From: an uncultured bacterium | GTDB taxonomy: Bacteria > CSSED10-310 > CAZUFC01 | DNA length: 64,000 bases | NCBI GenBank assembly: GCA_964619725.1 | Contig: CAZUFC010000001.1 | Span: 128,001-192,000, forward strand | Direction of reading: 5' to 3' | Notes under the pieces: model-generated | Database searches by the model: none | Told to the model about the DNA's origin: nothing | What the model saw: only the letters and a program-made list of their open reading frames with translations | Shown: positions 5,732-64,000 of the stretch, in pieces | Numbering within the stretch: position 1 is the first letter of the stretch | How the letters are laid out: every line of letters starts with the position of its first letter | Position numbers and translations under genes: made by a program

Positions 5732-5741
5732 GGAGCTGCCG

Positions 5742-6335
5742 ATGGCATCAACGCTGACGAAGGATTTTACAAAAGGATTATGGAAAGAGGTGCCGCCTTT
5801 TCGGCTGGTGTTGGGTCTGTGTCCTGTTCTGGCTGTGACGACTGCGGCGTTTAACGGCCTGGGCATGGGTCTGGCGACCACTTTCGTGCTGACCTGTTCA
5901 AACACTATCATTTCTATTTTAAGAAAGCTTATTCCCCGAAAGGTCAGGATCGCTTCTTACATCGTTGTGATCGCCACCTTCGTGGTCATCACCGAACTGG
6001 TCATGCACGCTTATACCTATAAACTGTATGAAGCCCTGGGAATATTCATCCCGCTTATCGTGGTCAATTGCATTATCCTGGGCAGGGCCGAAGCCTTCGC
6101 AAGCAAAAAACCGGTCATCAATTCCATTGCCGACGGACTCGGAATAGGACTCGGTTTCACGGCTTCGCTTACTCTCCTGGGCGCCATTAGAGAAATAACA
6201 GGAAACGGAACCCTGTTCGGCGCTTCCCTCTTCGGACCGGACTTTGAACCTTTCACCTTCATGGTCCAGGCCCCGGGCGCCTTCGTCTGCCTGGGAGCAG
6301 TCCTCGGACTCATGAACATGATAAGCAAAGATTAA
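5742..6335 (+). CDS. rnfE: Rnf complex subunit E
   Basis: LGLCPVLAVT, IPLIVVNCIILGRAE, PGAF. Confidence 0.97.
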   Translation: MASTLTKDFTKGLWKEVPPFRLVLGLCPVLAVTTAAFNGLGMGLATTFVLTCSNTIISILRKLIPRKVRIASYIVVIATFVVITELVMHAYTYKLYEALGIFIPLIVVNCIILGRAEAFASKKPVINSIADGLGIGLGFTASLTLLGAIREITGNGTLFGASLFGPDFEPFTFMVQAPGAFVCLGAVLGLMNMISKD

Positions 6336-6385
6336 ATCTGCGAAAGCATTAGTCTTATGAACCATACCAAGGGAGAATAAAATAA

Positions 6386-6979
6386 ATGGAACACTCCTCC
6401 TCACTTCAGGATTATATGATATTACTGTTGAGCGCCATGTTGATTAAAAACGTCCTGCTGGCCAAGTTTCTGGGGCATTGTCCTTTTCTGGGGGTTTCCC
6501 GGAGAATGGAAACGGCTGTGGGAATGAGCATGGCCGTCGTTTTCGTTATGACGATGGCAGGCATGATAACCTGGGTTGTCCGGCGTTTTTTACTGGAACC
6601 TTTCGACCTGACATACATGCAGACCATCGCTTTCATTCTCGTTATCGCTTCACTCGTGCAATTCGTGGAATTGTTTCTTCAAAAAACAATCCCGGCGCTT
6701 TATAAAGCCCTCGGCATCTTTCTGCCGTTGATTACCACAAACTGTGCTGTGCTCGGCGTGGCTCTCCTCAACATTAACGAAAATCACGACTTTATTAAAA
6801 CCGTCGTTTTTTCAATCGCCTCCGCCATTGGATATGGCTTGGCTCTGATACTGTTTGCGGGATTACGGGAAAAATTTGAGGTCAGCGATATACCGAAGCC
6901 TTTCAGGGGGACGGCCATCGGCCTGATTACCGCCGGAATGATGTCTATGGCTTTTATGGGATTCGCCGGACTTGTGTGA
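6386..6979 (+). CDS. rnfA: Rnf complex subunit A
   Basis: FLGHCPFLGVS, LPLITTNCAVLG, AGLRE. Confidence 0.97.
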   Translation: MEHSSSLQDYMILLLSAMLIKNVLLAKFLGHCPFLGVSRRMETAVGMSMAVVFVMTMAGMITWVVRRFLLEPFDLTYMQTIAFILVIASLVQFVELFLQKTIPALYKALGIFLPLITTNCAVLGVALLNINENHDFIKTVVFSIASAIGYGLALILFAGLREKFEVSDIPKPFRGTAIGLITAGMMSMAFMGFAGLV

Positions 6980-7084
6980 TGTGATATAATCAATTTTGAC
7001 GGGCAGAAGAAATCGTTCATTCTGCTCTGACTAGAGATAAAAAATGAGAAAAAAAGAGAATCGTTCACAAGGAGGGACCTTTTA

Positions 7085-9223
7085 ATGGGTTGGGCAATTT
7101 TAGTTCTTGCCGGTCTTGGGTTGGCTGCGGCTGCAGTTCTGGCGGCGGCATCCAAGATATTTTATGTTTATGTCGACCCTAAAATAGAAGCGGTAGAAGA
7201 TGCCCTGGCGGGCGCCAATTGCGGCGGATGCGGAGCGCCCGGATGTTCCGCCGCTGCTGAAATGATCGTGGCGGGCAAGTTGCCGGTGACGGCATGCGTG
7301 GCCGGCGGTGAAGAAGTTGCTGAAGAAGTGGCTGCTGTAATGGGCGTCGAAATGGAATTCAAGGAACCGGAAATTTCCGAATGCGGTTGCCGCGGCGGAG
7401 TTTTACAGGCTGACAGGATATACGAGTATTCGGGAGTAAAGGATTGCAGGGCGGTCGACATGCTGGCTGAAGGAGACAGCATATGCACGACTTCATGCCT
7501 GGGTTACGGAACATGCGTCCGGGCCTGTCCTTTCGATGCCATGACTCAGGGCGAAGACCTTCTGCCTAAAATAGATTTTACTCGCTGTGTGGGTTGCGGC
7601 GTGTGCGAGGAAATTTGTCCTCATGATGCGGTCAAACTGGTTTCGGAGTCCAGGAAGCTTCTGCACTGGCTGGAGAAGGACGAATGTTCGGCGCCCTGTC
7701 AAACGAAGTGTCCCGCACAGATAGACATACCCAGTTATATCTTTCATATTCGGAATAAACGTTATGCGGATGCCCTTGACGTTATTCGCGAGCATAACCC
7801 GCTGCCCATAACATGCGGTTATGTGTGTCCGCATCCCTGCGAAGAGGTCTGTCGCCGATTGAATGTGGACGAACCGGTAGCGATTAACGATCTGAAGCGG
7901 TTTGTCGCTGACTATGAGCTTGACGACAAAGGAAAGTCCATGGCGGGAAGGTTGTCCGTTCTTCCTGACACAGGCAAAAAGGTAGCAATAATGGGCGGCG
8001 GACCCGCCGGGTTGTCGGCGGCTTATTTTTTGAGACGGTTAGGCCATTCGCCCACTATCTTTGAGCGTATGCCGAAATTAGGCGGAGCCCTCGAATACGG
8101 CATACCGGAATACAGATTGCCTAAAGCTCGCCTGGCCAAGGAAATTCAGGGAATTTTGGACCTGGGCGTCGAAACGCGTCTGCAAACGGAATTAGGCAAG
8201 GATGTAACTATGGAATCGCTCAAAGAAGAAGGTTTCGACGTTTTTCTCCTGGCGGGAGGCACTCCGACCGGATTCTACAGCGGAACGGAGGGCGAAGACC
8301 TGGAAGGTATTCTCCTGGGCATTGATTTCCTTCGCGATTATGCTCTGGGAAAAGACGTGCCGCTGGGCGAAAGAGTGCTGGTAGTCGGCGGCGGCAACGT
8401 GGCTGTTGATGTCTCGTTGACGGTTAAAAGACTGGGCATTCCCATCGTTTATCAGGCCAGCCTGGAAGACAGGTGGACCATGCCGGCATGGGAACATGAG
8501 ATTCAGGACGTCCTCGTCCAGGGCGTCAACCTTATTCCGACCTGGGGACTAAAGAGATTTATCGGCAAAAACGGCAAACTCACAGCCGTAGAAATGCAAA
8601 GATGCGAATGCGTGTTTGACGAAGAAGGCCGGTTTAATCCTCAGTATGACTGCGATCAGACTATGAACATCGCCATCGACAACGCCTTGATTACTATCGG
8701 ACAGGGAGTCGATACCGAATTCATGAAGTCGCATCCCATTTTGAAAAATGTCCTGGACAGTCGAGGAAAAGTTGATATCGATAGCGCCACCATGCAGACG
8801 AATGTCGATTACATTTTTGCTGCAGGCGAAATCGTAACCGGACCGGGGCTGGCGATTGAAGCCATTGGCGCCGGAAGAAAAGCAGCCGTCAATATTCACC
8901 GGTATCTCACCATGGAGCAACCCGGTAAAGTCGAACCTTTGCCGCGGCTGCTGGGTCAAATTCGTGATTATGCCGATGAGGAAGAACTGGCCGAAATTCC
9001 GAAGGAGGAAAGACAGAGAGAACGAAGATTACCCCCGGAAAAACGTCAGGGATTCGACGTCGTGAACCTCGGTTTCACGGAAGAACAGGCTTTGAAAGAA
9101 GCCGGCAGGTGTCTTCAGTGCGGGATGTATTGCTTCATTAATCCCCGCACGGGTCATGAGAAAGACGGCAAACAGAGCGAAGCGGAAGGAACTGCTCATA
9201 GAGAGCGCATGAGCAAAGTGTAA
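7085..9223 (+). CDS. rnfB: RnfB fused to a GltD/NfnB-like FAD-dependent NAD(P) oxidoreductase
   Basis: TM anchor, NCGGCGAPGC, ferredoxin motifs, then APCQTKCP, CGYVCPHPCEEVC, GGGPAGL, YGIPEYRLP, GGGNVAVD, terminal RCLQC. Confidence 0.9.
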   Translation: MGWAILVLAGLGLAAAAVLAAASKIFYVYVDPKIEAVEDALAGANCGGCGAPGCSAAAEMIVAGKLPVTACVAGGEEVAEEVAAVMGVEMEFKEPEISECGCRGGVLQADRIYEYSGVKDCRAVDMLAEGDSICTTSCLGYGTCVRACPFDAMTQGEDLLPKIDFTRCVGCGVCEEICPHDAVKLVSESRKLLHWLEKDECSAPCQTKCPAQIDIPSYIFHIRNKRYADALDVIREHNPLPITCGYVCPHPCEEVCRRLNVDEPVAINDLKRFVADYELDDKGKSMAGRLSVLPDTGKKVAIMGGGPAGLSAAYFLRRLGHSPTIFERMPKLGGALEYGIPEYRLPKARLAKEIQGILDLGVETRLQTELGKDVTMESLKEEGFDVFLLAGGTPTGFYSGTEGEDLEGILLGIDFLRDYALGKDVPLGERVLVVGGGNVAVDVSLTVKRLGIPIVYQASLEDRWTMPAWEHEIQDVLVQGVNLIPTWGLKRFIGKNGKLTAVEMQRCECVFDEEGRFNPQYDCDQTMNIAIDNALITIGQGVDTEFMKSHPILKNVLDSRGKVDIDSATMQTNVDYIFAAGEIVTGPGLAIEAIGAGRKAAVNIHRYLTMEQPGKVEPLPRLLGQIRDYADEEELAEIPKEERQRERRLPPEKRQGFDVVNLGFTEEQALKEAGRCLQCGMYCFINPRTGHEKDGKQSEAEGTAHRERMSKV

Positions 9224-12520: not shown

Positions 12521-13297
12521 ATGGCAAATATACTGGTTGTAGATGACGAAGCTGTGGTGTGCGGCAGCGTTGAACGCATATTGAAACGGAACGGACATGA
12601 AACCGAATGCGTTTTGACGGCGAAAGAAGGCCTGGATTTAATGCAGAACAGAGATTTTGATCTGGTGATAACGGATTTAATGCTGCCGAAAATGAGCGGC
12701 ATGGATTTAATGCAGATCATCCATGATAAGAAGCCGTCCTTGCCCATAATAATGATTACGGGGTACGCCACAGTAAAAAATGCGGTTCAGGCTTTAAAAA
12801 TCGGCGCTTTTGATTTTATTCCAAAACCTTTTACTCCGGAGGAGCTACGTTCTGCGGTCACCCGGGCGCTGGAACGGAGCCGTCTGAAAAAGGAAAGCAT
12901 CAGCCCCCTGCCTGATACCAGGAATATGTATGGGATTCCTGAGCATTCATGGATAAAAATCGATAACGGTGAAGGGGTGGCGGGCGTCGATCCCGTTATG
13001 CTTAAAACGATCTCAAAGGTGATCAGCATCGAATTTCCCTTTAAAGGCGACGAACTTTCCCAGGGAGGAATTTGCGCCCGCCTGATATCGAAGAACAGGA
13101 AAATATATGCGGTATGGTCGCCTTTATCCGGGAAAGTGACGGATGTGCACTACAGGCTAAATCAGAATATCGACAAGTTGGAGACTGACGCTTACGGTGA
13201 GGGATGGCTGTTGAAGATAGAACCGACTTTGTTCGATGAAGAAGTGAAAAACTTGAAATCATACCAGGAACAAACCGAAGAGAATGAATCAGAATAA
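12521..13297 (+). CDS. Response regulator receiver domain fused to a glycine-cleavage-H-like domain (paralog 2)
   Basis: REC motifs VVDDE, ITDLMLP, ITGY, PKPF; HSWI...PLSGKV...DAYGEGWL; RBS AAGGAG. Confidence 0.88.
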   Translation: MANILVVDDEAVVCGSVERILKRNGHETECVLTAKEGLDLMQNRDFDLVITDLMLPKMSGMDLMQIIHDKKPSLPIIMITGYATVKNAVQALKIGAFDFIPKPFTPEELRSAVTRALERSRLKKESISPLPDTRNMYGIPEHSWIKIDNGEGVAGVDPVMLKTISKVISIEFPFKGDELSQGGICARLISKNRKIYAVWSPLSGKVTDVHYRLNQNIDKLETDAYGEGWLLKIEPTLFDEEVKNLKSYQEQTEENESE

Positions 13298-13814
13298 GAT
13301 AGGACGGATTCTGGCTGCAGGCGTCGGTAATTCCGCCATGAGCGACGATTCCGTCGGAGTGCGGATTATCGAAGAACTGAGAAAACGGGAATGGCCGGAG
13401 AACATTGATTTTGTCATGCTTGATTATGATCCGGTCGACCTTTTAACGTTTTGCGAACAGTACGAATGTCTCGTATTAATCGATGCCGTATCGCGAAGCG
13501 GGAATCCCGGTCAATTGCATATAATAGCCCAGGAGGATTTCTTCAAAGAAGCAAAGCGAGAACGTCCGTGTTCGCTTCATCAACTGGGGCTTTCAGAAAC
13601 GTTGAAGCTGGCCCGTGCACTGGGATACCGTTTCCGGTTTTTCCTTTTCGGCATCGAATTCGAAGATTTAAGTCCGGGATTCAGTCTCTCCCGAAAATTG
13701 GCCGACCGTTTTTCCGGCCTGGTTGATGAGATCGCTTCAGAGCTTTTAAAAATCTCTAATAAGAAATCGAAACAGGCGATCTGCAATGATCGTTTGGAGG
13801 TTGCAGTAAAATGA
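13284..13814 (+). CDS. [NiFe]-hydrogenase maturation protease (HyaD/HycI family)
   Basis: GVGN.AMSDDSVG, LIDA, SLHQL. Confidence 0.92.
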   Translation: MNQNKIGRILAAGVGNSAMSDDSVGVRIIEELRKREWPENIDFVMLDYDPVDLLTFCEQYECLVLIDAVSRSGNPGQLHIIAQEDFFKEAKRERPCSLHQLGLSETLKLARALGYRFRFFLFGIEFEDLSPGFSLSRKLADRFSGLVDEIASELLKISNKKSKQAICNDRLEVAVK

Positions 13815-14842
13815 TAGCTAAACTGTTGCCGAAACAGTATACGAGGAAATTTATCAAGAACCTTGAGTCGTTCGGCAAGGTCCATGCTCCGGTCATGAAA
13901 GACGATCAGAACGTCGTTTTTTCAGAAGTCGAGGACCCGAAAGACGTAGTTCTGCATTATCAGACGACGATAATTCCGCCGAAGAAGTATTTTTTCAAGC
14001 CGGAGCAGGTCATATTGACCTTTTCGAAAGATAAGGGTTATGAGATACCTGAGGAGGAATTACGGGAAAAACTGGTGCTGTTCGGAGTTCACTCCTGCGA
14101 TATAGCGGCTTTACAGATTCTGGACCTGGTTTTTTCGGACAATTATTACGATAAATTCTACTTCACCAGGAGGCGCAATACGGTCGTCATCGGAATCAGT
14201 TGCACTCCTGACATATATTGTTTTTGTTCGTCCATGGGAACGGATTATGTCGAAAAAGGCTTTGATCTTTTTTTGACGGACATTGGCGATGAGTGGTTCG
14301 TTCGTATCGGAACGGCGAGAGGCGACGACATAGTTCGCCATAACGACAGATTCTTTAAGGAGGCTACTCCGGAGAGCATACGGGAATTCAAGGACTTTGC
14401 GAACAAGTTTCATGAGATGTTTACACGTCATCTTGATTTGAGCAATCTTTCGCCTATTCTGGAACTGGAATATCAGAGCAAGTTGTGGGATGAGCTGGGC
14501 GACAAGTGCTTAAGCTGCGGAACCTGCTCCTTGATATGTCCGACGTGCTATTGCCACAACATGGTCGACAAGGTTGATTTTAAAGGAACAGGAGAACGTG
14601 TTAGGACCTGGGATTGCTGTTTGTATGAGGATTTCTCCCTGGTAGCCGGCGGTCATAACTTCAGAGAAAGCAGAGCCTCCCGCATAAAAACCCGTTTTTT
14701 TCACAAACAGCAGGGTTTCGTGGAAAAATACGGCCGACCCAGTTGCGTCGGGTGCGGTAGATGTATTGAAAAATGCCCTGCGGGTATTGACATGGTCTCC
14801 ATTCTTGAAAAAATAAGGGGGGAAACGGATGTTGCCGTCTAA
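13811..14842 (+). CDS. Group 3b (sulf)hydrogenase beta subunit (4Fe-4S, AsrA-like)
   Basis: GVHSCD, CFC.SMG, CLSCGTC...CPTCYC, CVGCGRC...CP. Confidence 0.9.
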   Translation: MIAKLLPKQYTRKFIKNLESFGKVHAPVMKDDQNVVFSEVEDPKDVVLHYQTTIIPPKKYFFKPEQVILTFSKDKGYEIPEEELREKLVLFGVHSCDIAALQILDLVFSDNYYDKFYFTRRRNTVVIGISCTPDIYCFCSSMGTDYVEKGFDLFLTDIGDEWFVRIGTARGDDIVRHNDRFFKEATPESIREFKDFANKFHEMFTRHLDLSNLSPILELEYQSKLWDELGDKCLSCGTCSLICPTCYCHNMVDKVDFKGTGERVRTWDCCLYEDFSLVAGGHNFRESRASRIKTRFFHKQQGFVEKYGRPSCVGCGRCIEKCPAGIDMVSILEKIRGETDVAV

Positions 14843-15704
14843 GTTAGCCAGAACGCTTTCCGATCCTAAGGAAGGCTACATATACAAGCCTCACAATGCA
14901 AACATAACTGACATAAGGTCTTTAATACCTGAACATAAGGTGTTCCGCATCGTCTTCGAGGATGAAGACTACCGGGAAAAATTCACTTTCAATCCCGGTC
15001 AGTTCATGATGCTGAGTCTTTTAGGGGCCGGTGAAGCGCCGATATCGATATGTTCTTCGCCGACCGAAAAAGGTTTTTTTGAATTATGCGTGCGGCGCAC
15101 GGGGAGAATAACCGACAAGCTTCACGATATGCAGGAGAATGATCGGGTCGGCGTCAGGGGACCATACGGAAACGGCTTTCCCGTTAATCTGCTGAAGGGT
15201 AACGATCTTCTTATGATAGTCGGCGGTTTAGGCATGGCTCCCCTGCGTTCCTTGCTGCGATATGTCGTCGACAAACGGAAAGAATTCGGAAGGGTTACTC
15301 TGGCGTACGGAATAAGGTCGCCCGATGACATGCTGTTTCACGATGAAATTATGCACCTGTTTCATCGCAAGGATATGAACGTGCTGCTGGCAGCGGAAAA
15401 CGCCGGAGAGCATCAAGACTGGCCGGGGAGCATCGGAATGGTTACTGACTTGTTCGACTCCTTTGACGTCGACCTGGAAAAAACTTATGCCGTCGTCTGC
15501 GGTCCTCCCGTAATGTATAAATTCGTTTTAAAGGGGCTGTTGGATATCCATTTCTCCAAAGACAAGATTTTCATGTCTCTGGAACGAAAAATGAAATGCG
15601 GCGTAGGCAAATGCAATCATTGTTCGATCGGTTATAAGCTAACCTGCATCGATGGACCTATTTTTACTTACTGGGATGCGATTAATCTTCCCGAAATAAT
15701 TTAG
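14829..15704 (+). CDS. Group 3b (sulf)hydrogenase gamma subunit (FAD/NAD(P)-binding, 2Fe-2S)
   Basis: PGQF, GEAPISI, RGPYGNGF, GGLGMAP, CGPP.M, MKCGVGKCNHC...C.DGP. Confidence 0.92.
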   Translation: MLPSKLARTLSDPKEGYIYKPHNANITDIRSLIPEHKVFRIVFEDEDYREKFTFNPGQFMMLSLLGAGEAPISICSSPTEKGFFELCVRRTGRITDKLHDMQENDRVGVRGPYGNGFPVNLLKGNDLLMIVGGLGMAPLRSLLRYVVDKRKEFGRVTLAYGIRSPDDMLFHDEIMHLFHRKDMNVLLAAENAGEHQDWPGSIGMVTDLFDSFDVDLEKTYAVVCGPPVMYKFVLKGLLDIHFSKDKIFMSLERKMKCGVGKCNHCSIGYKLTCIDGPIFTYWDAINLPEII

Positions 15705-15715
15705 GGGAATGAAAT

Positions 15716-16501
15716 ATGAGTGAAAAACCTTCGTTATCAATTTACGGACTCACGGGTTGCGCAGGCGATCAGTTGACGATATTGAACTGCGAAGATGAAC
15801 TGCTTGAAATATTTGATGCGGTCGATATACACTCCTTTGTTATGGCTCAAACCGGAAACGTCGAAGATAAAGTGGACGTAGCCCTGGTTGAAGGTTCAGT
15901 CACGCAACCGCATGACAAGGAACATCTGCTGCAAATACGCGAAAACTGTAAGATGCTGGTCGCTATTGGCACCTGTGCTGTTTGGGGCGGCGTTAATGCT
16001 CTCAGAAACGACGCCGACCGCAGACAGCTCATCAACATCGTCTACGGACCCGAAAACAAAAGCGTGAAATACCGGGAACCAGCGCCGCTGAGCGCCTTCG
16101 TTCATGTGGACTACGCAATTCCCGGATGTCCTGTTGAAAAATCGGAAATCCTGCACGCACTGGCATGCCTGGCTCAAGGCGTCGCTCCCGTTATTCCCAA
16201 TTATTCTGTCTGTCATGAATGCAAAATCAGGGAAAATCGCTGCTTATTGATGGAAGACGGCGCCTTCTGCATGGGACCCATAACAAGAGGCGGCTGCGGG
16301 TCCAAATGTCCGAATCTCGGAAGGCCCTGCATAGGATGTCGAGGTCCTGTGGCGGATGCCAATATTCTTTCGGAAGCGAAAATTTTGAGGGAAAAGGGAT
16401 ATGGGTATCCGGAAATATTGAGACGGCTTCAAACATTCGCTTATCCTGCTAATGCCGTCAATGAAGTTAGAAAAAAATTTCTGCTTGATTCGAAAATATA
16501 A
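15716..16501 (+). CDS. Group 3b [NiFe]-hydrogenase small (delta) subunit
   Basis: TGCAGDQ, VEGSV, IGTCA..GG, IPGCP, distal Cys cluster; no Tat signal, so cytoplasmic. Confidence 0.92.
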   Translation: MSEKPSLSIYGLTGCAGDQLTILNCEDELLEIFDAVDIHSFVMAQTGNVEDKVDVALVEGSVTQPHDKEHLLQIRENCKMLVAIGTCAVWGGVNALRNDADRRQLINIVYGPENKSVKYREPAPLSAFVHVDYAIPGCPVEKSEILHALACLAQGVAPVIPNYSVCHECKIRENRCLLMEDGAFCMGPITRGGCGSKCPNLGRPCIGCRGPVADANILSEAKILREKGYGYPEILRRLQTFAYPANAVNEVRKKFLLDSKI

Positions 16502-16516
16502 GGGAGGAAAAAGGCG

Positions 16517-17815
16517 ATGCCTCATTCTTTTACTATAGACGTTAACGAAGTATGCCGGGTTGAAGGGCACGGTAATATCCACGTTGCAGTGAAAAATAAT
16601 GCCATAGAATACGTCAGGATGGGTATTCATGAAGGTCCCCGATTATTCGAAGCAATGTTCGTCGGCCGCAAATTCCAGGAGGTCCCCAAAATAGTTTGCC
16701 GTATCTGCGCCATCTGCTCAGCTCATCACGATCTGACCTCCATCATGGCACTGGAAAACGCCCTCGGCGGCGTCCGAGTCTCCGAACAGACGAAACTTCT
16801 TCGAGAATTGCTTTTCCTGGGCGGACAGATCGAAAGCCATTATCTGCACATTTTTTTCCTGGCTCTGCCTGATTTCCTAGGATACGACGGTGCAGCCGCC
16901 ATGGCGGCTGATTATCCCGAAGAAGTCAAGCTGGCGCTCAAAATGAAAAAATTGGGCAATACGATCCAGGAATTGGTCGGGGGAAGGGCAATTCATCCCA
17001 TAACTACCGATATCGGCGGTTTCTCAGACGTTCCTTCCGAAAAGGCATTGATGGATTTAAAAACCCAACTGGAAGAAGCCCTGGAAGGCTCCGTCAAAAC
17101 AGCGGATATCCTGGCGGGAATAGATTATACGGATTATTACACTGACCAGGACTTCAAATACCTCGCCGTCAAACCGAACCACGATGATTTCGGATTCATG
17201 GGCGACAAAATCATGGATTCCAACGGCGGACTGAATCCTGTCGAAAAATACAAAGATTACATCAGGGAATACGTCGTGGACCATTCCACGGCCAAGCAAA
17301 GTCTATACAATGAAAAGTCTTTCATGGTGGGCGCTATCGCCAGGACCAACCTCCTGGGAGACAGACTGAAAAACAGGGCGGCTGAAGCATTAAAAAAACT
17401 CGGCCTCGACGAATACTCTGTCAATCCCATTCATAACACTCCCGCCCAGGCCGTCGAAGGTATCTACTGCATCGAACGATGCATCGAAATAATCGATGCC
17501 CTGCTGGAGAAAGGCGTCAAAAAGGAACCTCAAGCCGGCTATGAAGTAGTTCCGGGAACGGGAGCAGCCGCTACGGAAGTACCCCGTGGAACCCTTTATC
17601 ACAGCTATTCCATCAATGAAAAAGGAATCATTACTGCCGCAGATGTTATTACCCCAACGGCTCAAAACCTGGCTAACATCGAATTCCACATGAGACAAAC
17701 AGTCCGGGGTACAAAAGATAAATCTCAGCAGGACATCCGGATGGAATTGGAAAAACTCGTTCGGGCCTATGACCCATGCATTTCATGTTCCGCTCACGCC
17801 GTCTTCCTGGATTGA
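16517..17815 (+). CDS. Group 3b [NiFe]-hydrogenase large (alpha) subunit
   Basis: RVEGHG, L1 RICAIC, GGRAIHP, EVPRG, L2 RAYDPCISCSAH plus a 5-aa cleavable tail. Confidence 0.95.
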   Translation: MPHSFTIDVNEVCRVEGHGNIHVAVKNNAIEYVRMGIHEGPRLFEAMFVGRKFQEVPKIVCRICAICSAHHDLTSIMALENALGGVRVSEQTKLLRELLFLGGQIESHYLHIFFLALPDFLGYDGAAAMAADYPEEVKLALKMKKLGNTIQELVGGRAIHPITTDIGGFSDVPSEKALMDLKTQLEEALEGSVKTADILAGIDYTDYYTDQDFKYLAVKPNHDDFGFMGDKIMDSNGGLNPVEKYKDYIREYVVDHSTAKQSLYNEKSFMVGAIARTNLLGDRLKNRAAEALKKLGLDEYSVNPIHNTPAQAVEGIYCIERCIEIIDALLEKGVKKEPQAGYEVVPGTGAAATEVPRGTLYHSYSINEKGIITAADVITPTAQNLANIEFHMRQTVRGTKDKSQQDIRMELEKLVRAYDPCISCSAHAVFLD

Positions 17816-18168
17816 TGGAACGCCCCTGGTTATTAACATAAATTCATATGCTCTGCTTCCCATCCAATAGCGCCTTCAATACTTCAGAAAAAATGACGGT
17901 GACTGAAACTACGAATCTCAGAACAGACGCTTCCCCCTTGGACTATCCCGCTGCGATCCCTCTTTTCACGCCCCTTGACAGGTCCAGCCATTTGAATTCA
18001 TGGTCTGCGTTATAGAATAAATTCTTGACTTTGATTGATCGTTTGTGCAGTAATATACTAGAGAAAGCTTCCGGTCGTGAGGAACGGACGGCTTGTAAAG
18101 CATTCGGAAATAAAACAGTCGAAGGGTTTGTCCCATTTGAAAATGAAATTTTTTATTCAGAGGAGGCT

Positions 18169-19797
18169 ATGATGCGTTTCAGCAGTAGAACTCTGTTTAT
18201 CGCGTTATTTTTTATTTTATATTGCGGCGCCGGGCTTTCGGGCGTTGAGGGTGCAGGCGGGTTTGAGCCCGTTGCAGCCGAATGGATCGATACGGCGGCC
18301 CATGGATGGATATTGAATTCGGAATATGTCGAGTGGGAGGATGCTGAAGCGGGGCGGCCGATTCCCCTGGAGAATCTGGACGGCGAGATTACGGCATATC
18401 TTTATCCTGTTCATAAAGGAGCGGAGGTTAAGGGTTATGTGACCATATCCGCTATAAAGGCTTACAGCCCTTTGTTTGAAAGGGCTGCCGGTTCTGACTT
18501 TGTCGATATGGTTCGTCGTTACGGCATCGATTATGATCACAGGCTGCTGTTTTTGGGAAATTTATATTATTTCGTTGAAATCGAAAGCGATAACCATAAT
18601 GAACCTGCTTACATTCATTTGCCTTCATTGGAAGTTTACGAAATAGAAAAAATAGAAAAAATTCAGGAACTTTTCTATGAACGCGAGGAAGACCTCCTGA
18701 GGACATCCCGGGACCATTGGACCGATATGGAAAGAGGCGAATTTTTTACAGGAACGATAGGATCGAATGAAGTTCCCAATGCGGAAGGGTTCGGATGGTA
18801 TCGCGGTTGCGGTCCGACCACCATAACCATGATGCTGCGTTGTTACGGCCGTAACGGGTATCCTGCCATGAACGAAAACATGCAGGAATTTTACTGGTGC
18901 GGTTTAAGAAAGCGGACGGCGCGTCTGTTGCACGACCGGGTAGCCAATTCATGCGGAATGCCTTATGACAGTTGCGATTATAACCAGTACGGAGTAACGG
19001 TTTTCCAGATGCGCAATTCTTTTACCGATACGGCGGCAACTTATGGCTACAACATGGGTGCGACAGTCGACGGGACTCCCAGCTACAACGAATTCAAGGC
19101 TGAAATCGACCAGGGCGATCCGGTGGGGCTGGCGATCTATAATGACAATGGTCCTATGGATTATGACGGGCATGCCATCATGGGATACGGATATATTTTC
19201 AACGCACAACATGTGGCTTTGGTTTTCGATACCTGGACCAGAAATCCCAGACAATACGCTCTCGAAAACCTGGCGGGATGGAACATGGTCAAGGCCGAAC
19301 CCGGTTCGCCGCCGCAGAATACTCCAACGCCGACACCCACTCAACCTCCGCCGCCCACTTTCACGCCGACTCAAGGCTCCACCGCTACTCCGACGCCCTC
19401 TCTGACTCCAACTCCGTCCCCTACTTTTAATCCGCAAAACCCTTTCGTCATCCTGCAGCTCAACGGAGTCTTTTTTACTGAGGGAGACATGTTCGACGTC
19501 TCACTTAACATCTGGAATCCGGAAGAATCCCAACTGACCTATATCATGATTGCTCTGGACCTCTCCGTGTTCGGACTTCCGGACCCCTACTATTTCTGGC
19601 CCCAATGGAACCAATCTCCGGCAATGGTTCCCAGAAGATTGCCGGCATCCAAAGTATATCAAGAAAAAATCCTGGGCTTCCAGTGGCCGGAAACTTCCGG
19701 TGAAGTATGGGGACTGAGATTCTGGACTGCAGTTTTCGATGCTTCAGGAGAAAACCTCTTCGCCAATTTATTCTTTATCGATTTTGGATATAAATAA
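18169..19797 (+). CDS. Secreted papain-fold cysteine peptidase (C39-like/C10-like) with prodomain, Pro/Thr linker and shared C-terminal domain
   Basis: Signal peptide after RBS AGGAGG; candidate triad GCGPTT / GHAIMGYGY / VFDTW; (PT)n linker. Confidence 0.75.
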   Translation: MMRFSSRTLFIALFFILYCGAGLSGVEGAGGFEPVAAEWIDTAAHGWILNSEYVEWEDAEAGRPIPLENLDGEITAYLYPVHKGAEVKGYVTISAIKAYSPLFERAAGSDFVDMVRRYGIDYDHRLLFLGNLYYFVEIESDNHNEPAYIHLPSLEVYEIEKIEKIQELFYEREEDLLRTSRDHWTDMERGEFFTGTIGSNEVPNAEGFGWYRGCGPTTITMMLRCYGRNGYPAMNENMQEFYWCGLRKRTARLLHDRVANSCGMPYDSCDYNQYGVTVFQMRNSFTDTAATYGYNMGATVDGTPSYNEFKAEIDQGDPVGLAIYNDNGPMDYDGHAIMGYGYIFNAQHVALVFDTWTRNPRQYALENLAGWNMVKAEPGSPPQNTPTPTPTQPPPPTFTPTQGSTATPTPSLTPTPSPTFNPQNPFVILQLNGVFFTEGDMFDVSLNIWNPEESQLTYIMIALDLSVFGLPDPYYFWPQWNQSPAMVPRRLPASKVYQEKILGFQWPETSGEVWGLRFWTAVFDASGENLFANLFFIDFGYK

Positions 19798-20051
19798 ACG
19801 CCCCTCGATAAACTCGTTCGGCGATAAAAATCAAAATATCTCAAGGTGTCGACAGAAAACTCCAACAGTCTGTTGAAATTACCCTTACAAACGGAAAAAT
19901 ATGAATAATAGTCCCCGGGGCGGTATCTGCTGCAGTCTGAAAAGCGCCCGCATTTATCCGTCCCTTTTTAGCTCTGGCGTGGCGCTAACGCTGCGTTTGA
20001 CTAATAAGAATTTGTTTAGTAGTATGATCCTTGCCTTCAATGGAGAGAGTG

Positions 20052-21476
20052 ATGACTAATCAAGGTGAAAAAAAATGCCCTCTTTGCGGAAGACCCTTAG
20101 AAAAAGATAAAAAAATATGCGATTATTGTCTGGGGGTAGCTAAAGCGCCGAACGACGTGGCTCGTCTCAGGAAAGAATTACTCGTTGATTTTCCCCCTTT
20201 GAACGAAAGCGAAGAAACAACCGCGGCATCCAGCGCGGAAGATGAAAGCGGGGGAACTTCTGCTGGAGAAAAACGAAAAGAGAAACCTGAAAAATTCCGA
20301 CCGGCTTTCGGCGTCAGAAAATCGGAAACATCAGAAAAACAGGAATTCCTTGCCGAAGAACTGCATAAACAGGCTTTCGATTACCTGAACAGAGGAAAAT
20401 TCGCCAAGGCCATTGAATTGTGGGAACGAGCGCTTGAATATGATCCGGAATTCGATCAGGCAAGAGACTATATAACCAAAGCCAGACAACTGATAGATGA
20501 AGCACGTGAAACATATCGACAGAAAAAACCGGAAACCAGAAAGAAAAAGAAGATACGTTTTTCACGCGTTTTGCTGACCACATTAATTTTATGCGCTATG
20601 TTCGCTGCAGGATATTATTATTTCAGGGAAAAAATTAACAAGATACGCGAGGAGGCCGAAACGCTCGATATCAAGCCTAAAATGGAGAGGATCGAAGCGG
20701 TTGAGGTCCATGGAATGGTTCAGATTCCTGCCGGAAGCTTTCCCATGGGCAAACCGGAAGATGATCCGGGAGCAAGTAAAGACGAAAAACCAAAAAGGAG
20801 CGTTTACCTGAACGAATATTACATGGATAAATACGAAGTGACCAATTCCATGTACGCCCGGTTCATTAACGAGCGAGGTTTGGGAGAGCCGGGGAAGCAG
20901 CCCTGGATCGATATCAGAAATCCGGCATGCAAAATCAGGAAGTTCGGCAACCAATTCAAGGCGGTACCGGGATATGAAGATTATCCCGTCGTGGCGGTGA
21001 ATTGGTTCGGCGCCATGGCTTTCGCTCGTTGGGCCGGCAAAAGACTACCCACTGAAGCGGAATGGGAAAAAGCGGCAGGAGGAACCCTGGGTTTGAATTA
21101 TCCCTGGGGAAACGAATGGGAGCCCAACATGGCCAACCTGGAAGAACGAAATACGCAAAGTCCGATTTCTGAAACCGTGCCGTTAGAGGACATCAGTCCC
21201 TACGGACTTTATCATATGGCCGGCAATGTTATGGAATGGTGCGCCGATTGGTACCAGGATAACTATTATTCTCGAGGTTTCGGCAGGAACCCCCAAGGTC
21301 CGCCTCAGGGAAAATTTAAAACGAAAAGAGGCGGCAGCTTCAAAACCAGCTCATATCTCAGCCGTAACTCTCATCGCGGTTTTGCCTCTCCAAGAGAATA
21401 CGCTGAAGACCTGGGTTTCCGTTGCGCATCCTATCAAGCCCCTAAGCGGGATATCGTTGACTTGGAAACCCCCTGA
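20052..21476 (+). CDS. Zn-ribbon/TPR/TM protein with a SUMF1/FGE-sulfatase-fold C-terminal domain
   Basis: CPLCG...CDYC, TPR, TM helix, then KYEVTN, RLPTEAEWEKAA, MAGNVMEW, RGGS, GFRC. Confidence 0.85.
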   Translation: MTNQGEKKCPLCGRPLEKDKKICDYCLGVAKAPNDVARLRKELLVDFPPLNESEETTAASSAEDESGGTSAGEKRKEKPEKFRPAFGVRKSETSEKQEFLAEELHKQAFDYLNRGKFAKAIELWERALEYDPEFDQARDYITKARQLIDEARETYRQKKPETRKKKKIRFSRVLLTTLILCAMFAAGYYYFREKINKIREEAETLDIKPKMERIEAVEVHGMVQIPAGSFPMGKPEDDPGASKDEKPKRSVYLNEYYMDKYEVTNSMYARFINERGLGEPGKQPWIDIRNPACKIRKFGNQFKAVPGYEDYPVVAVNWFGAMAFARWAGKRLPTEAEWEKAAGGTLGLNYPWGNEWEPNMANLEERNTQSPISETVPLEDISPYGLYHMAGNVMEWCADWYQDNYYSRGFGRNPQGPPQGKFKTKRGGSFKTSSYLSRNSHRGFASPREYAEDLGFRCASYQAPKRDIVDLETP

Positions 21477-21609: not shown

Positions 21610-22677
21610 ATGAACGAAAACAAACGTCATTTTCTTTTCCTGAGCGCGCTTTTGATTATTTTGATTATTTCAGCGGCCGTTCTTCATCGTTATTCGGATA
21701 TGAATCAAAGGGCGGCGCTTGAAAAGAAAGTTGATCCTGTAAAATTTTCCATCACCCGGAAAGAATTTTTGCGTAATTTTTATTCTTATAAAGAACATTT
21801 TTTCGAAATCGATCATGAAACGGCCCGTAAACGGTTGATGAAAAGACAGGCTGCAGATTCAGTATCCCGCCTGAAAATTGAGGAATTAAAAAAGTCCTTA
21901 CTGGCAAAAGCCTGGAAAAACATTCTATCAGGCAGTCTTAATGAGGCGGAGGATATTCTTGTACGTGTCAGGGAGTTGAATCCCGATCCGGAGGAATTGT
22001 CGAAACTGGAAAATGAGCTGGCGGAACGAAAGTCTGAACTGAAAACAGAAAACCTGAACAGGATGCGACGTGAGCGCAAAGCAGAGGAAATGCTGGAAAA
22101 AGTAAGATTACTCTATTTTGAGGGCCGTTACCAAGAGTCGTTAAGCTTGCTTGATAAGCTGGAAGAAATCGACGGCGGAAATCCTGATATAGAAACATTT
22201 AAAAATCGAAATAGGGCCGCCCTTAATGTAAAAAATGCAAAAGATGAGCGTGGCTTTATCGCTGAAAAACCATCTCCAGCCCCAACGAAAAGAGGCAATA
22301 TAAAACCTCCGAAACTTTCGCCTTCTCCATCGCCCGGATCGGCGCTTCCCTTGCCCAGTGTTGATGTAATTCTTCTCGGTAAGACTGATATACAGGAACG
22401 GACCCCTGTCGAGGTCCTGGTCAGGGTTTCTCCATCGGGCGACGAATATCAGGTGATACTTTATTATAAAAATAAATTCATGTCTGAATACAAATACGAA
22501 CGCTTGTCAGAGGAAAACGCAGGCGAATATTTCGGGAAGATACCGAAAAAGCATGTTAAATCTCCCGATATGGAATATTATGTAGTGGTCATCGACAGCA
22601 AGGGCAACAATTTGGCCGAGCCTGCCGTAAAAAAAGTCAAGGTTTCGAAAAGGCAATGGGTTGAACCGCCGCTGTAA
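21610..22677 (+). CDS. Membrane-anchored TPR-like protein with a C-terminal beta domain
   Basis: N-terminal TM, helical repeats, Pro/Ser linker, terminal YYVVVID..GN. Confidence 0.6.
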   Translation: MNENKRHFLFLSALLIILIISAAVLHRYSDMNQRAALEKKVDPVKFSITRKEFLRNFYSYKEHFFEIDHETARKRLMKRQAADSVSRLKIEELKKSLLAKAWKNILSGSLNEAEDILVRVRELNPDPEELSKLENELAERKSELKTENLNRMRRERKAEEMLEKVRLLYFEGRYQESLSLLDKLEEIDGGNPDIETFKNRNRAALNVKNAKDERGFIAEKPSPAPTKRGNIKPPKLSPSPSPGSALPLPSVDVILLGKTDIQERTPVEVLVRVSPSGDEYQVILYYKNKFMSEYKYERLSEENAGEYFGKIPKKHVKSPDMEYYVVVIDSKGNNLAEPAVKKVKVSKRQWVEPPL

Positions 22678-50029: not shown

Positions 50030-53000
50030 ATGAAAACCAAAAGGCTGAAGGGAATTACCGCTCTCTTTTTGATATTTTCAGCCTGCATTTGCGCGGCTGA
50101 TCAAAATGAATTATGGTCACAGGACAATTTTGTTTCTGATGCCTGGTACTTTGATAAGTATTTTAACCGGACGGAACGCTTTAAGGTAGAAGGAACAGAA
50201 ATAATCGTCAAACTGGACGAATATGATGTCGCGAAATCAACGCTGCTGGCTTCGGTTTATGATATTGAGGAACTCCATGCATTGGACGAAGAATATTATT
50301 TCGTTCATTACCGGATTCCGTTAAAAAAGGACATATGGGCTGTTTTAAAGCGTATTAATGCAGAAAAGGATGTTGCTTCTGCCTTTCCCGTTTTAATTGA
50401 CATGAGAGGAGCGAAGAAACCGGTTGTGGGAAATGAAATGACCGTGCGTTTTATTTCAGGACTGACGGAATCGGCATGTGAGGCGATAATTGAGGAGATG
50501 GGCAGTCGTGTGGTTCAGGACCATTGGACTCCGGGTTATTATACGATAACGGTTCCTGCCGGGATGACTTTATTTGAAGGAATACGGGCTTACAATGCCC
50601 GTTCGGACGTTAAATTCGCAGAATTTTTTCTGATAGGTTATGACGACGCATTATTCATTCCGAATGATCCTGACTTTGATGATCAACAGAATTTATTGAA
50701 TACGGGCCAGGTGCCGTCGTGCGACGATTGTCCCCCGTTCGGAGATCATGACATAGACGCAGTTACGGCCTGGGACATAACCCGGGGCGATCCCGACATC
50801 ATAGTGACTATTATCGATTCGGGATGTGATTTGGATCATCCCGATCTCGTGGATAATTATCTGGACCGTGACGGAGAGGATTGGAATTTTGCGAGCACGA
50901 GCAGCGACGTCCCTGAAGACACCTACGGCCACGGCACGTCCTGTGCCGGCATAGCGGCAGCAGTGAGCGACAATGCAGAGGGAGTGGCGGGAATAGCGAA
51001 TCACTGCCGCATTATGCCTTTGAAAATTGACCTTTCTTCAGGCGCCAATCAGAACAGAGCGGATGCGATTAATTACGCAGCCAGTCGTATAGGAGATTTC
51101 GACGGTATCGTTATGAGCAACAGTTGGCGAATGAGTTCAGGTTCTTATACGGCGGTGTATGCAGCGATTGAAAGCGCCAAGGCTGCGGGTTGCGTGGTCT
51201 GCTTTGCAGCGGGAAATGAGAATCAATCCCCGGTGGAAGCGCCATCGGACAGCGAACATTGCATCTGTGTGGGAGCGTTAAGTCCTTGCGATGAAAGAAA
51301 AAGTTACAGCAGTTGCGACGGTGAATCCTGGGGATCAAGCTACGGGAACGCCCTGGATGTCGCAGCGCCCGGCGTGTTGATTCATACGACGGAAATAGGA
51401 GGCGGATACACTGGAACGTTCAATGGAACATCCAGCGCCTGCCCGCATGTGGCTGGAGTTTGTGCGTTAATATTGTCGATAGCTCCTAATTTGACGCCTG
51501 ATGAACTTCAGGAGGCGCTGCAGGATGGATGCGACGATATTGATCCTCCAGGTTGGGATACGGAAACAGGTTACGGGCGGGTAAACGCATATAATTCACT
51601 CAATCTGGTTTCAGGCGTTTTCATGAATAAAAAAGCCTACCAATGCGAAGACACCGTCTATGTTTCAGTCAGAGACTCAGAGCAGTCCGTCAGTATTGAA
51701 GTCGAAGTCACCAGCAATACGGAAACTTTAGGTGAAACATTGACTCTACTCGAGATTCCGGGAGATGCCGGTTTATTTGAAGGCTCAATCGTATGCTCGG
51801 AAATACCTCCCTCTTCAGGAGACGATATTATTTCAGTCGTTCATGGCGATGAAATTACAGTTTATTACCCCGCACTAGACAAATCAGCATCATCCGCCGT
51901 TGATTGCTCTGCTCCGGACATATCCGAAGCGACGCTCGATAATATCGGCGATATCTTCGTTGAAATTTCGTGGGCAACCGATGAACCGGCTACGACAAAA
52001 ATCGTTTACGGTATAGGAACGCCCGATCAGTTTTATGAAGATTATGAATTGACTGATGCACATGAAGTGAGAATCGACGGCTTAACCGACTGCGAAAATT
52101 ATGTTTTTTACGTAGAATCTTCTGACGCCGCCGGCAATACGGCCATCGACGACAACGGAGGAACATATTACTCCTTTACGACTCAAGATCGCGTCATTTT
52201 GCTCGAAGCCGATATGGATACCGATCCCGGCTGGTCGACCGACGGACTCTGGGAATGGGGTCAGCCTGCGGGACAGGGCGGAGACCACGGAGGACCGGAC
52301 CCGAGTTCGGGTCATACGGGAAATAATGTTTATGGGTATAATCTGAACGGCGATTACACAAACTATATGGGCGAAACGGACCTGACTACGCCGGCTTTCG
52401 ATTGCAGCAATGCCGATAATGTTAAATTGAGTTTCTATCGGTGGCTCGGAGTGGAACGAAGCTATTACGATCATGCTTACCTGAGAATATCCACGAACGG
52501 TTCCTCCTGGACGACTGTCTGGCAGAATCCCGACGCAGAAACTTATGACGGGCAATGGGTCCTTTACGAATACGACATAAGTCAATTTGCCGACGGAGAA
52601 CCTGCCGTTTACCTGAAATGGGTTATGGGAACAACGGATTCAGCCTGGGTTTATTGCGGCTGGAACATCGACGACGTGGTCGTCTCTTACACCATCCCAT
52701 GCCAGACTTCACCTACGCCCACTGCTCCACCCACCTTTACTCCGACTCTCACTCCTACGGCTACACCTACCAGAACACCCACCTATTCGCCCACTCCCAC
52801 ACTTTCGCCGACGCTTTCACCTACCGCCACATTAACCCCCACCACCACCACCACCGTTACCCTCTCTCCAACCTGCTCGCCGTCTTTAACGCCGACCGAT
52901 CCGCCTTCCTATACTCCCACAGTAATCATCACTGCGACGCCATCTATAACTCCAACTTTAATTGAATTCACGCCTTCCGTTACACCTACTCATCCTCTGG

Positions 53001-53356
53001 AAGTCGGGGTGGAATTGATCATCAGCGATGAAATGTTTCATCCGGGAATGCTTTTCGAGCTTAAAGCTTTTATAGAAAATCCAGGTCCAGAAACATACGA
53101 AGAACAACCTTTCGTCATTCTTCTCGATGTACTGGGCATGTACTTCTATTACCCGTTCTGGGATACAACCTTCTCCTTCGAACCCCTTAATCTGGGCGTC
53201 GAAACAATAGAGAAAAATATACTGACGTTTACCTGGCCGGAAACGGGCGAAGCAGCGCTCGACGGCATAGTCTTCTACGGCGCACTGCTTACCAGTGACT
53301 TTAACGATATCCTGGGAAGATTCGATGCTGAAGAATTTGGCTATGGACCCGAATGA
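50030..53356 (+). CDS. Secreted S8 subtilase with FN3-like and jelly-roll domains, Pro/Thr linker and shared C-terminal domain
   Basis: Signal peptide; triad IIDSG / GHGTSCAG / GTSSACPH; AAGN; ~95-aa PT linker. Confidence 0.93.
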   Translation: MKTKRLKGITALFLIFSACICAADQNELWSQDNFVSDAWYFDKYFNRTERFKVEGTEIIVKLDEYDVAKSTLLASVYDIEELHALDEEYYFVHYRIPLKKDIWAVLKRINAEKDVASAFPVLIDMRGAKKPVVGNEMTVRFISGLTESACEAIIEEMGSRVVQDHWTPGYYTITVPAGMTLFEGIRAYNARSDVKFAEFFLIGYDDALFIPNDPDFDDQQNLLNTGQVPSCDDCPPFGDHDIDAVTAWDITRGDPDIIVTIIDSGCDLDHPDLVDNYLDRDGEDWNFASTSSDVPEDTYGHGTSCAGIAAAVSDNAEGVAGIANHCRIMPLKIDLSSGANQNRADAINYAASRIGDFDGIVMSNSWRMSSGSYTAVYAAIESAKAAGCVVCFAAGNENQSPVEAPSDSEHCICVGALSPCDERKSYSSCDGESWGSSYGNALDVAAPGVLIHTTEIGGGYTGTFNGTSSACPHVAGVCALILSIAPNLTPDELQEALQDGCDDIDPPGWDTETGYGRVNAYNSLNLVSGVFMNKKAYQCEDTVYVSVRDSEQSVSIEVEVTSNTETLGETLTLLEIPGDAGLFEGSIVCSEIPPSSGDDIISVVHGDEITVYYPALDKSASSAVDCSAPDISEATLDNIGDIFVEISWATDEPATTKIVYGIGTPDQFYEDYELTDAHEVRIDGLTDCENYVFYVESSDAAGNTAIDDNGGTYYSFTTQDRVILLEADMDTDPGWSTDGLWEWGQPAGQGGDHGGPDPSSGHTGNNVYGYNLNGDYTNYMGETDLTTPAFDCSNADNVKLSFYRWLGVERSYYDHAYLRISTNGSSWTTVWQNPDAETYDGQWVLYEYDISQFADGEPAVYLKWVMGTTDSAWVYCGWNIDDVVVSYTIPCQTSPTPTAPPTFTPTLTPTATPTRTPTYSPTPTLSPTLSPTATLTPTTTTTVTLSPTCSPSLTPTDPPSYTPTVIITATPSITPTLIEFTPSVTPTHPLEVGVELIISDEMFHPGMLFELKAFIENPGPETYEEQPFVILLDVLGMYFYYPFWDTTFSFEPLNLGVETIEKNILTFTWPETGEAALDGIVFYGALLTSDFNDILGRFDAEEFGYGPE

Positions 53357-63467: not shown

Positions 63468-64000
63468 TCATTCGCCCCAACCGAATGTCCAGGAATCCAT
63501 GATGCCTCGCACGTCTGTAATTTCATAATTTGTAAAGGCGGCGAACCACATGATATTTCGTGCCGATCCGGCATTTTCCGGCCAGAGGAATTCTTCCACG
63601 ACGGTAAATCCACCCGTTCCGGGGGTAAGGTCGATTTCATAATAATTAAATTCAGAAAAATCAGGAGCGAAATAATATTCTCCGAATACTTCCAGAACGA
63701 CGAAAAGAGGAATATTTTCATACTGAATCTGATTGGGATTTTCAAAGAAAACGTTGCAGGAGCAGACGTCATTCGGATAATAGAAATTGGAGGGCATCCA
63801 GAGCATTACAGAAACGGGTTCTGTTTGGGGCGTAGGCGAAGGCGGCACCGGAGTGTCCGTGCCTGGTACGGTTGACGGCGATATGCAAGGGGTAAAAGTT
63901 TCCGAATGTGAGGGAGCAGGAGTGGAACTAGCAATTAAAGTAGATGTCGGAGAGGGAGTCGGTGATGGGGGAGAAGTCGGCGTAATGCTGGGCAGGGGCG
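63468..64000 (-). CDS. C-terminus of a protein with a Pro/Thr linker and the shared C-terminal domain; 5'-partial
   Basis: PT-rich frame runs to the window edge, then ENP...EVFGEYYFAP...FLWPE...FGWGE*. Confidence 0.85.
   Translation of the reverse strand, partial: PLPSITPTSPPSPTPSPTSTLIASSTPAPSHSETFTPCISPSTVPGTDTPVPPSPTPQTEPVSVMLWMPSNFYYPNDVCSCNVFFENPNQIQYENIPLFVVLEVFGEYYFAPDFSEFNYYEIDLTPGTGGFTVVEEFLWPENAGSARNIMWFAAFTNYEITDVRGIMDSWTFGWGE

Follow-up and report, generated by a model that had tools for sequence, protein, structure and literature searches.

The window analysed here is a stretch of 64,000 nucleotides (C1:128001-192000) from the genome of an uncultured bacterium of the lineage CSSED10-310. 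Three of its genes encode proteins that end in the same domain, which we call the tag; these are the only three copies inside the window, and each follows directly on a linker rich in proline, threonine and serine (P/T/S). The genes and their parts are listed below, with coordinates counted from the first nucleotide of the window.

18169..19797, plus strand: gene 1, an exported C39-like cysteine peptidase with the tag (Peptidase_C39_2), with a signal-peptide-like N-terminus from Met49
19297..19437, plus strand: Pro/Thr/Ser linker of gene 1, about 47 residues (residues 425-473 of the open reading frame, with at least 6 of 10 residues P/T/S throughout)
19438..19797, plus strand: C-terminal beta-sandwich domain, copy 1, including the stop codon; 171 bits against the three-copy profile
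50030..53356, plus strand: gene 2, an exported S8 subtilase with an N-terminal prodomain, a MAM-like middle, a long Pro/Thr (PT) stalk and the tag
52685..52999, plus strand: Pro/Thr/Ser linker of gene 2, about 105 amino acids
53000..53356, plus strand: C-terminal beta-sandwich domain, copy 2, including the stop codon; the copy used for the structure model, with eight strands
63468..63821, minus strand: C-terminal beta-sandwich domain, copy 3, including the stop codon; the parent gene, of 457 amino acids, begins past the end of the window
63822..63998, minus strand: Pro/Thr/Ser linker of gene 3, at least 59 residues, continuing beyond the window

Gene 1 lies in an open reading frame (ORF) of 590 amino acids (aa) at 18025-19797 (+) with the final residues FIDFGYK, and the 1108-aa ORF of gene 2 (50030-53356, +) finishes with EEFGYGPE. 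The part of gene 3 inside the window (63468-63998, minus strand) ends in TFGWGE; complete in the genome, it runs over C1:191471-192841 and encodes 457 aa. When the three proteins are aligned, 17 columns of their last ~118 aa are invariant, among them those of the NP, P, FxWPE and FG motifs, and pairwise BLASTP of the tails gives E values of 6e-9 (29/116 identical), 4e-5 (23/95) and 7e-14 (33/120), so that their similarity is far above chance. An earlier sequence-only reading of the window had proposed just such a shared domain of about 120 aa, with these motifs and behind a Pro/Thr linker; each of these points holds, all three pairs being significant and each linker being P/T/S-rich over the lengths listed above.

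The same reading had given the two complete genes different catalytic domains and a signal peptide each, and here too the analysis agrees with it. In gene 1, Peptidase_C39_2 matches ORF residues 260-396 with 27.2 bits (cut-off 24), and a Pfam scan finds Peptidase_S8 together with a fervidolysin-type prodomain in gene 2, of which residues ~650-930 resemble MAM-like regions from other phyla. No Pfam family was matched by the gene 3 protein (L042). Both complete genes have Sec-type leaders; gene 1 has its leader only with translation from Met49 of the ORF (nt 18169, MMRFSSRTLFIALFFILYCGAGLSG), which is the likely start, and not from the TTG at 18025. This TTG opens the longest ORF of the gene, 48 codons 5' of the signal-peptide methionine (18025-18168), and annotating the gene in its long form would therefore mask the export signal.

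Copy number, cargo and range of the domain

To count the domain in the genome as a whole (G000; 9.17 Mb, 344 contigs, 47% G+C), a profile of the three window copies, iterated twice, was run over 53,820 six-frame ORFs (minimum length 60 aa). The profile finds 225 copies in 224 ORFs, with a single case of two copies within one ORF, and the carriers correspond to ~3.5% of 6,470 crudely called genes, as anticipated from the three copies seen in 64 kb. The expected C-terminal position is also kept almost throughout: 206 of the 225 copies end at most 5 aa from the stop, 7 end 6-15 aa and another 7 end 16-40 aa from it, and 5 are internal or N-terminal, from which it follows that the terminal position is not required for folding. 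An aromatic-x-aromatic pattern occurs in the last 12 residues of 179 of the 208 full-length terminal copies, mostly 1-5 residues from the end. The linker is equally general, in that the 40 aa ahead of the domain have a median P/T/S fraction of 0.525 versus 0.196 in the remainder of the same proteins.

The proteins that carry the tag are diverse. In a random sample of 60 of 211 carriers, Pfam families were found in 46, and every best-scoring stretch listed lies upstream of the tag. The peptidases among them are C25 (5), S8 (3) and M14 (3), and also M28, S15 and C13; the glycosidases are GH18, GH57, GH114 and GHL10 with an amidase; and the other cargo comprises beta-helix proteins (6), PMP repeats (3 more), FG-GAP, BNR/sortilin, PKD, lamin-tail, CBM96 and PGA_cap. 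This spectrum is a repertoire typical of surface or secreted proteins. Signal peptides, predicted with home-made rules that have a high background, are enriched among the carriers, as the sequence-only reading would have it: the strict rule is passed by 155/208 carriers versus 925/4,230 other ORFs, and the loose rule by 187/210 versus 282/600. Lipobox-like leaders are uncommon among the carriers (10/187). When cargo class is mapped onto a tree of 53 tags, in which only 4 branches are well supported, 15 changes are needed (minimum 3; shuffled mean 23.3; 0/200 shuffles as low), which suggests that tags may have been exchanged between cargo classes.

A search of 1.84 billion representative proteins returned 2,698 matches at E ≤1e-3 and 2,290 at 1e-10. 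Among the best 150 matches, 147 of 153 domains end at most 5 residues from the C-terminus, and the only named relatives in the database are labelled 'candidate division CSSED10-310'. Within this phylum the tag occurs in 10 of the 13 other sampled genomes (families f4, f6 and f7), with 60 to at least 148 matches each, and families f2, f3 and f5, with three genomes that are 87-96% complete, gave 0 matches.

Outside the phylum, 7 of 287 sampled genomes have a match at E 1e-3. Convincing matches come from G055 (54) and G223 (52), which belong to one genus, and from G059 (5). The second small phylum, that of G055, has the domain in all seven of its genomes, which form one family, with 10-33 matches each at E 1e-6; G059 is the sole genome of its phylum and gives 4 matches. 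Among the nine strongest external matches, one is N-terminal; the distance to the stop is 3-11 residues in seven and 32 residues in the remaining one. Giant proteins of the second phylum, of 2,356-4,242 aa, carry tandem copies at their ends. Of five giants examined, four finish with two or three copies in tandem and the fifth with a single one; between the final copy and the stop there are 4-9 residues in four of the five and 24 in the other. The cargo in this phylum includes a C25 peptidase, a thioredoxin/AhpC protein and a DUF362 protein with a twin-arginine (TAT) leader. Because divergent and mostly C-terminal copies thus occur in two further phyla, the description of the domain as lineage-specific needs widening. 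The tag is not described in the papers searched, nor is the domain mentioned in the CSSED10-310 genome announcement.

A few proteins have rarer architectures. In C153:3829-6558 (L074), C179:780-2942 (L077) and C40:22837-25437 (L075) the domain stands right behind the signal peptide or between catalytic domains. The database protein P0100 looks like a merger of two tagged units, with FGE-type regions and two copies of the domain, one internal and one terminal.

Fold and comparison with known systems

For copy 2, AlphaFold2 with a 60-copy alignment predicts an eight-strand beta-sandwich with a pLDDT of 98.0 and a pTM of 0.88, which is a confident prediction. The domain is ~115 aa long, with the motifs LDVxGxYxFxPxW and FxWPE and a terminal FG[WY] followed by 1-5 residues. 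Foldseek relates the model to RhoGDI, Spo0M and CARDB with a best E of 4e-4 and TM-scores of ~0.5 (E 6.5e-4 for the CARDB structure 3idu). The best VIA-align match is the N-domain of a dextranase (Z 10.2, root-mean-square deviation 2.9 Å, 102 residues aligned), followed by RbmA (Z 9.3) and by 3idu (Z 8.9, 2.9 Å, 97 aligned), and Z ≥8 is reached by 21 chains from unrelated families. The fold is a generic Ig-like one and gives no functional information.

Comparison with family databases revealed no already characterised domain. The three window tails match no Pfam or NCBIfam model even at E 1, and no Pfam model was matched repeatedly by 60 copies of this genome even at E 5. A sequence search of the PDB has its best match to LRP6 at E 0.009, which we take as chance; the ESM Atlas holds unnamed clusters only (best score 0.91), a PADLOC scan gave no match, and a word-based homologue search gave only 9 matches. 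The second-phylum relatives show faint matches to CARDB, DUF11 and A2M_BRD, those to CARDB and DUF11 being under their cut-offs, and NPCBM_assoc is reached by one tandem copy in each of two giants (27.5 and 24.6 bits, cut-off 24.4). This fold and these faint profile matches, and nothing beyond them, would place the domain in the CARDB-like (E-set) Ig superfamily, as a new family within it. CARDB, NPCBM_assoc and DUF11-type domains, which belong to the Pfam E-set clan, may share a fold class with the tag at TM-scores of ~0.5, but their models are matched by none of the 60 copies of this genome at E 5, and these families are usually internal or repeated modules rather than a single terminal tag.

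A known system that invites comparison with the tag is the type IX secretion system (T9SS) of Bacteroidota and their relatives, whose type A C-terminal domain (TIGR04183 / PF18962, Por_Secre_tail) is likewise a small beta-sandwich at the extreme C-terminus of Sec-exported proteins, with dozens to hundreds of carriers per genome and a diverse cargo that includes C25, S8 and M14 peptidases and glycosidases. However, the tag has ~115 aa against the 72 positions of the T9SS tail model, its motifs (LDVxGxYxFxPxW, FxWPE and the terminal FG[WY]) are unlike those of T9SS tails, it usually follows a long PT stalk, and no sequence or profile similarity between the two was found. Specifically, hhalign of the 60 copies against 20 genuine type A tails, excised from two control genomes, gives a probability of 0.7%, and neither TIGR04183 nor PF18962 matches the window copies at E ≤1 or the 60 copies at E ≤5. 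TIGR04183 tails number 79 and at least 150 in the two control genomes and 0 in each of G000, G001, G003, G006, the second-phylum genomes G055, G223 and G304, and G059.

The T9SS core is likewise not found in the genomes scanned, for SprA and PorV; PorU and GldKLMN were not searched for. There is no SprA (TIGR04189) in G000, G001, G003, G004, G006, G007 and G008 (86-96% complete); of the controls, a Cloacimonadota genome scores 467 bits and an incomplete Bacteroidota genome has no match. For PorV (NF033710) nothing exceeds the cut-off in 5 genomes, and the controls gave no positive either. The claim that the domain does not look like a T9SS tail is thus upheld, and the corresponding claims for dockerins and autotransporters fare equally well. 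Dockerins are small calcium-binding helical modules with a duplicated loop-helix motif and a cohesin partner, whereas the modelled tag is all-beta and Ig-like, its copies match no Pfam dockerin or other family, and no partner module was seen in the neighbouring proteins sampled, cohesin not having been searched for. The C-terminal beta-barrel of an autotransporter (type V secretion) comprises ~250-300 aa; the model of the ~115-aa tag is a sandwich without a barrel, and no Pfam or NCBIfam autotransporter family matched it.

A second tail on the same enzymes, and neighbouring genes

The strongest indirect argument on the role of the tag comes from paralogues that lack it. Local profiles were built for four cargo classes in this genome, and the tag is present in 6/21 ORFs of the S8 class, 14/25 of C25, 6/6 of M14 and 29/84 of beta-helix proteins. 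In 5 S8 and 6 C25 paralogues that lack the tag, the PT stalk leads into a tail in which the motif [VI]P[AST]..G precedes a membrane helix and a cluster of basic residues. Genome-wide, a regular expression finds this tripartite tail in 210 ORFs, with a PT-rich stretch ahead of it in 103, and 0/210 carry the beta-sandwich tag; examples are C1:116473-121089, which lies outside the window, and ORFs on C140 and C232. Because the same stalk on the same enzyme families is followed by one of two mutually exclusive tails, the tag would also be a localisation module.

The tripartite tail belongs to a recognised class of sorting signals. Such exosortase-type tails (PEP-CTERM, IPTL-CTERM and kin) consist of ~30 residues, namely the motif, the membrane helix and the basic cluster, and are read by an exosortase-family protein; the tag is instead a folded 115-aa sandwich, which takes the place of these tails after the PT stalk in S8 and C25 paralogues and is about as abundant (224 versus ~210 ORFs). 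A short Exosortase_EpsH homologue is encoded at C134:13003-13455 and also in 4/4 other genomes of the phylum that were tested. The tag itself has no motif-helix-basic cluster, and its eight strands form a sandwich without a hydrophobic helix, so that, as the sequence-only reading had it, the tag is not a PEP-CTERM tail.

Two S8 and three C25 paralogues end in yet another domain, which finishes in WPYLNV. This third recurrent C-terminal module (WPYLNV or similar) is seen on S8 and C25 peptidases without either of the other tails, at ORF ends on C51, C69, C70, C72 and C34; a loose pattern for such endings returns 7 ORFs, ~5 of them convincing.

Immediately 3' of gene 1, the window encodes at 20031-21476 (+) a protein in which a Cys-rich motif at the N-terminus is accompanied by a TPR region and an FGE-sulfatase domain. 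This protein scores 116 bits against GldK, far under the cut-off of 350; a TPR protein follows at 21610-22677 (+). Because of this neighbour and of the internal copies in FGE proteins, we considered a link between the tag and FGE-type proteins, but found no association: 2/27 FGE ORFs carry the domain and 2/215 tag genes have an FGE neighbour. More generally, the neighbours of tag genes fall into clusters of tag-less beta-helix and FG-GAP giants, a collagen-repeat family, TonB receptors, radical-SAM proteins and sigma-54 activators. The paralogues with collagen-type Gly-X-Y repeats recur beside tag genes in 14 ORFs, for example C5:109165-111030 and C91:22173-24008.

Elsewhere in the window, a gene for an ECF-type sigma-70 factor (53736-54254, minus strand) lies 380 bp past the stop of the S8 gene on the opposite strand. 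The 580-aa protein of 60631-62373 (+) combines a DUF11-like region with a 'choice-of-anchor N' domain (NF038141, 45.7 bits against a cut-off of 40); it ends in GDCPL, and neither kind of C-terminal anchor is recognisable in it. At 2782-9223 and 13284-17815 (+) an Rnf complex gene set, whose RnfB is fused to a glutamate-synthase-like NAD(P)-binding module, adjoins the genes for a four-subunit sulfhydrogenase-type NiFe hydrogenase and a maturation protease, with two response regulators and a histidine kinase between the two sets. The window also encodes LptD, so that an outer membrane is expected, and LptD, Rnf and the sulfhydrogenase together point to a diderm anaerobe.

Role of the domain

Our preferred reading, to which we give about an even chance, is that the tag is an independently folding CARDB-like (E-set) address or anchor module at the C-terminus of Sec-exported proteins, retained at the outer face of the envelope. 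The analysis establishes the homology, the copy number, the C-terminal position, the diverse cargo, the enrichment of signal peptides, the fold, the lack of T9SS markers and the alternation of tails; the surface location, the retention of the domain and any partner, together with every step after export, we infer. Specifically, an N-terminal signal peptide would first take the protein across the inner membrane by Sec. An extended Pro/Thr stalk would carry the terminal domain at its tip, and this domain would then set the protein's final location. Most likely the domain is not cleaved, and its non-covalent hold would keep the enzyme or adhesin on the outer face of the envelope, the stalk acting as a spacer. 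The outer membrane may be crossed by a general route, secretins being present, or by means of a dedicated receptor for the domain.

Several results weigh against this reading. When the 628 ORFs that flank tag genes were clustered, no translocon-like family emerged. Secretin and Omp85 were rejected as dedicated partners, since both are present in 14/14 genomes of the phylum, with and without the tag alike. Peptidase_C25 was rejected as well, being present also in genomes without the tag; G001 and G002 have strong matches, and in G004 there are 4 first-look candidates, none of them at E 1e-60. A screen for proteins resembling outer-membrane proteins gave 23 signal-peptide ORFs with an aromatic C-terminus, 20 of which were put through annotation. 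Among the orphans, L151, L158 and L159, searched as single-sequence queries, have no homologue in G006, G055, G001, G002 and G004, that is, not even in a tag-bearing relative, and are therefore not conserved machinery; the screen also yielded L146, L154 and the FadL-like L156 and L157. The fold is generic, as the best structural match to a dextranase N-domain and then to many unrelated Ig-like domains indicates, five copies in this genome are internal or N-terminal, and the home-made signal-peptide rules pass many non-carriers. The proposal of a secretion or surface-attachment signal with machinery of its own is thus borne out in part: the domain is C-terminal on diverse exported cargo and alternates with a sorting tail, but neither the neighbourhood nor the distribution scans yield any machinery.

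A more far-reaching proposal, clearly less probable in our view and offered tentatively, is that the tag addresses cargo to an outer-membrane system for secretion or attachment that has yet to be described. Such a system would match the T9SS in function but have an independent origin, from a CARDB-like Ig domain. Three rare uncultured phyla would share it, and it would run alongside the exosortase-type system in the same cells, with a translocon and a processing enzyme among the unannotated proteins.

The main alternative to retention, which we think unlikely by a somewhat larger margin than that proposal, is that the tag is removed: it would be the cleaved signal of a new T9SS-like outer-membrane system, in which a dedicated translocon recognises the folded domain in the periplasm and a sortase-like peptidase then either cuts the tag off or replaces it by an anchor of lipid or glycan. 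Carrier numbers of 60 to ~224 per genome and the kinds of cargo resemble those of T9SS sets, which have 79 and at least 150 tails in the controls; the tag is strictly terminal, with its aromatic-x-aromatic pattern in 179/208 copies; and C25, the family of the T9SS sortase PorU, which removes the type A tail and attaches the cargo to anionic LPS, is a frequent carrier in two phyla, while the T9SS itself (SprA, PorV and tails) was not found. However, no candidate translocon appears in the neighbourhood, in the distribution or among the orphans of the outer-membrane screen, C25 peptidases are also found in genomes without the tag, and the three tag-less families of the phylum keep the same general outer-membrane machinery. 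Moreover, no conserved cleavage motif is seen at the domain boundary in alignment A2, and PT stalks of up to ~105 aa better suit a retained anchor than a signal that is removed.

A binding module is a rather unlikely explanation, by our estimate a little less probable than a cleaved signal. Here the tag would act like a carbohydrate-binding module (CBM) and stick the enzymes to an external substrate or to a community matrix rather than to the cell's own envelope. A PT linker followed by a terminal beta-sandwich of ~100 aa is the classic CBM layout of cellulases, and type I dockerins and CBM2-type modules are likewise single terminal modules on many enzymes, often behind a Pro/Thr linker. The near folds include accessory domains of glycosidases, the biofilm scaffold RbmA and CARDB; one related second-phylum copy exceeds the NPCBM_assoc cut-off (27.5 versus 24.4 bits); and sequencing runs with window DNA, from one study that may be the source of the genome, are labelled microbial mat metagenome; the runs listed for the S8 gene include no RNA run. 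However, CBMs are mostly found on glycosidases, whereas the cargo of the tag is much wider and extends beyond polysaccharide enzymes to many peptidases, adhesin-like beta-helices, and thioredoxin-type and FGE-type proteins. There is also one copy per protein at the very end (206/225), and, within the same families of paralogues, the tag and a membrane-anchoring tail exclude each other, which speaks for a role in localisation.

We regard as improbable a dockerin-like or homotypic assembly module that builds multi-enzyme surface complexes through scaffolds or tag-tag contacts. The second-phylum giants that end in two or three tandem copies would fit it, as would copy numbers and a diversity of cargo like those of dockerin sets, but this genome has one ORF with two copies and no tandem arrays, and no repeated receptor module occurs in the large neighbouring proteins sampled. 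Still less credible is a purely structural Ig-like cap that serves as a folding aid, protease shield or spacer without any targeting role: the generic fold and the few internal copies are compatible with it, but such a cap is not expected on ~220 unrelated proteins, as the last element behind a flexible stalk and exchangeable with a sorting tail. Finally, a highly divergent T9SS type A domain served by a divergent T9SS, which would share position, size class, beta-sandwich and kind of cargo with the tag, appears on sequence comparison close to refuted by the hhalign result, by the eight genomes without TIGR04183 tails, and by the absence of SprA from 7 genomes of the phylum and of PorV above its cut-off, set against the controls.

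C-terminal address domains have led to the discovery of whole sorting machines before, namely the T9SS, sortases and exosortases. The tag is not homologous to T9SS tails, accounts for the ~3.5% of crudely called genes noted above and for an estimated 2,700 protein clusters worldwide, and belongs to phyla that have no cultured member and in which T9SS markers were not found. New here are its range past one phylum, the families without the tag, counts for the alternation of the two tails, the lead to a superfamily and the partner candidates that are excluded. If we read the domain correctly, it would allow the surface and secreted proteome of these organisms to be listed in one step, and would serve as bait in a search for its partner, for which the three tag-less families of the phylum and the divergent form in the second phylum provide a natural comparison set.

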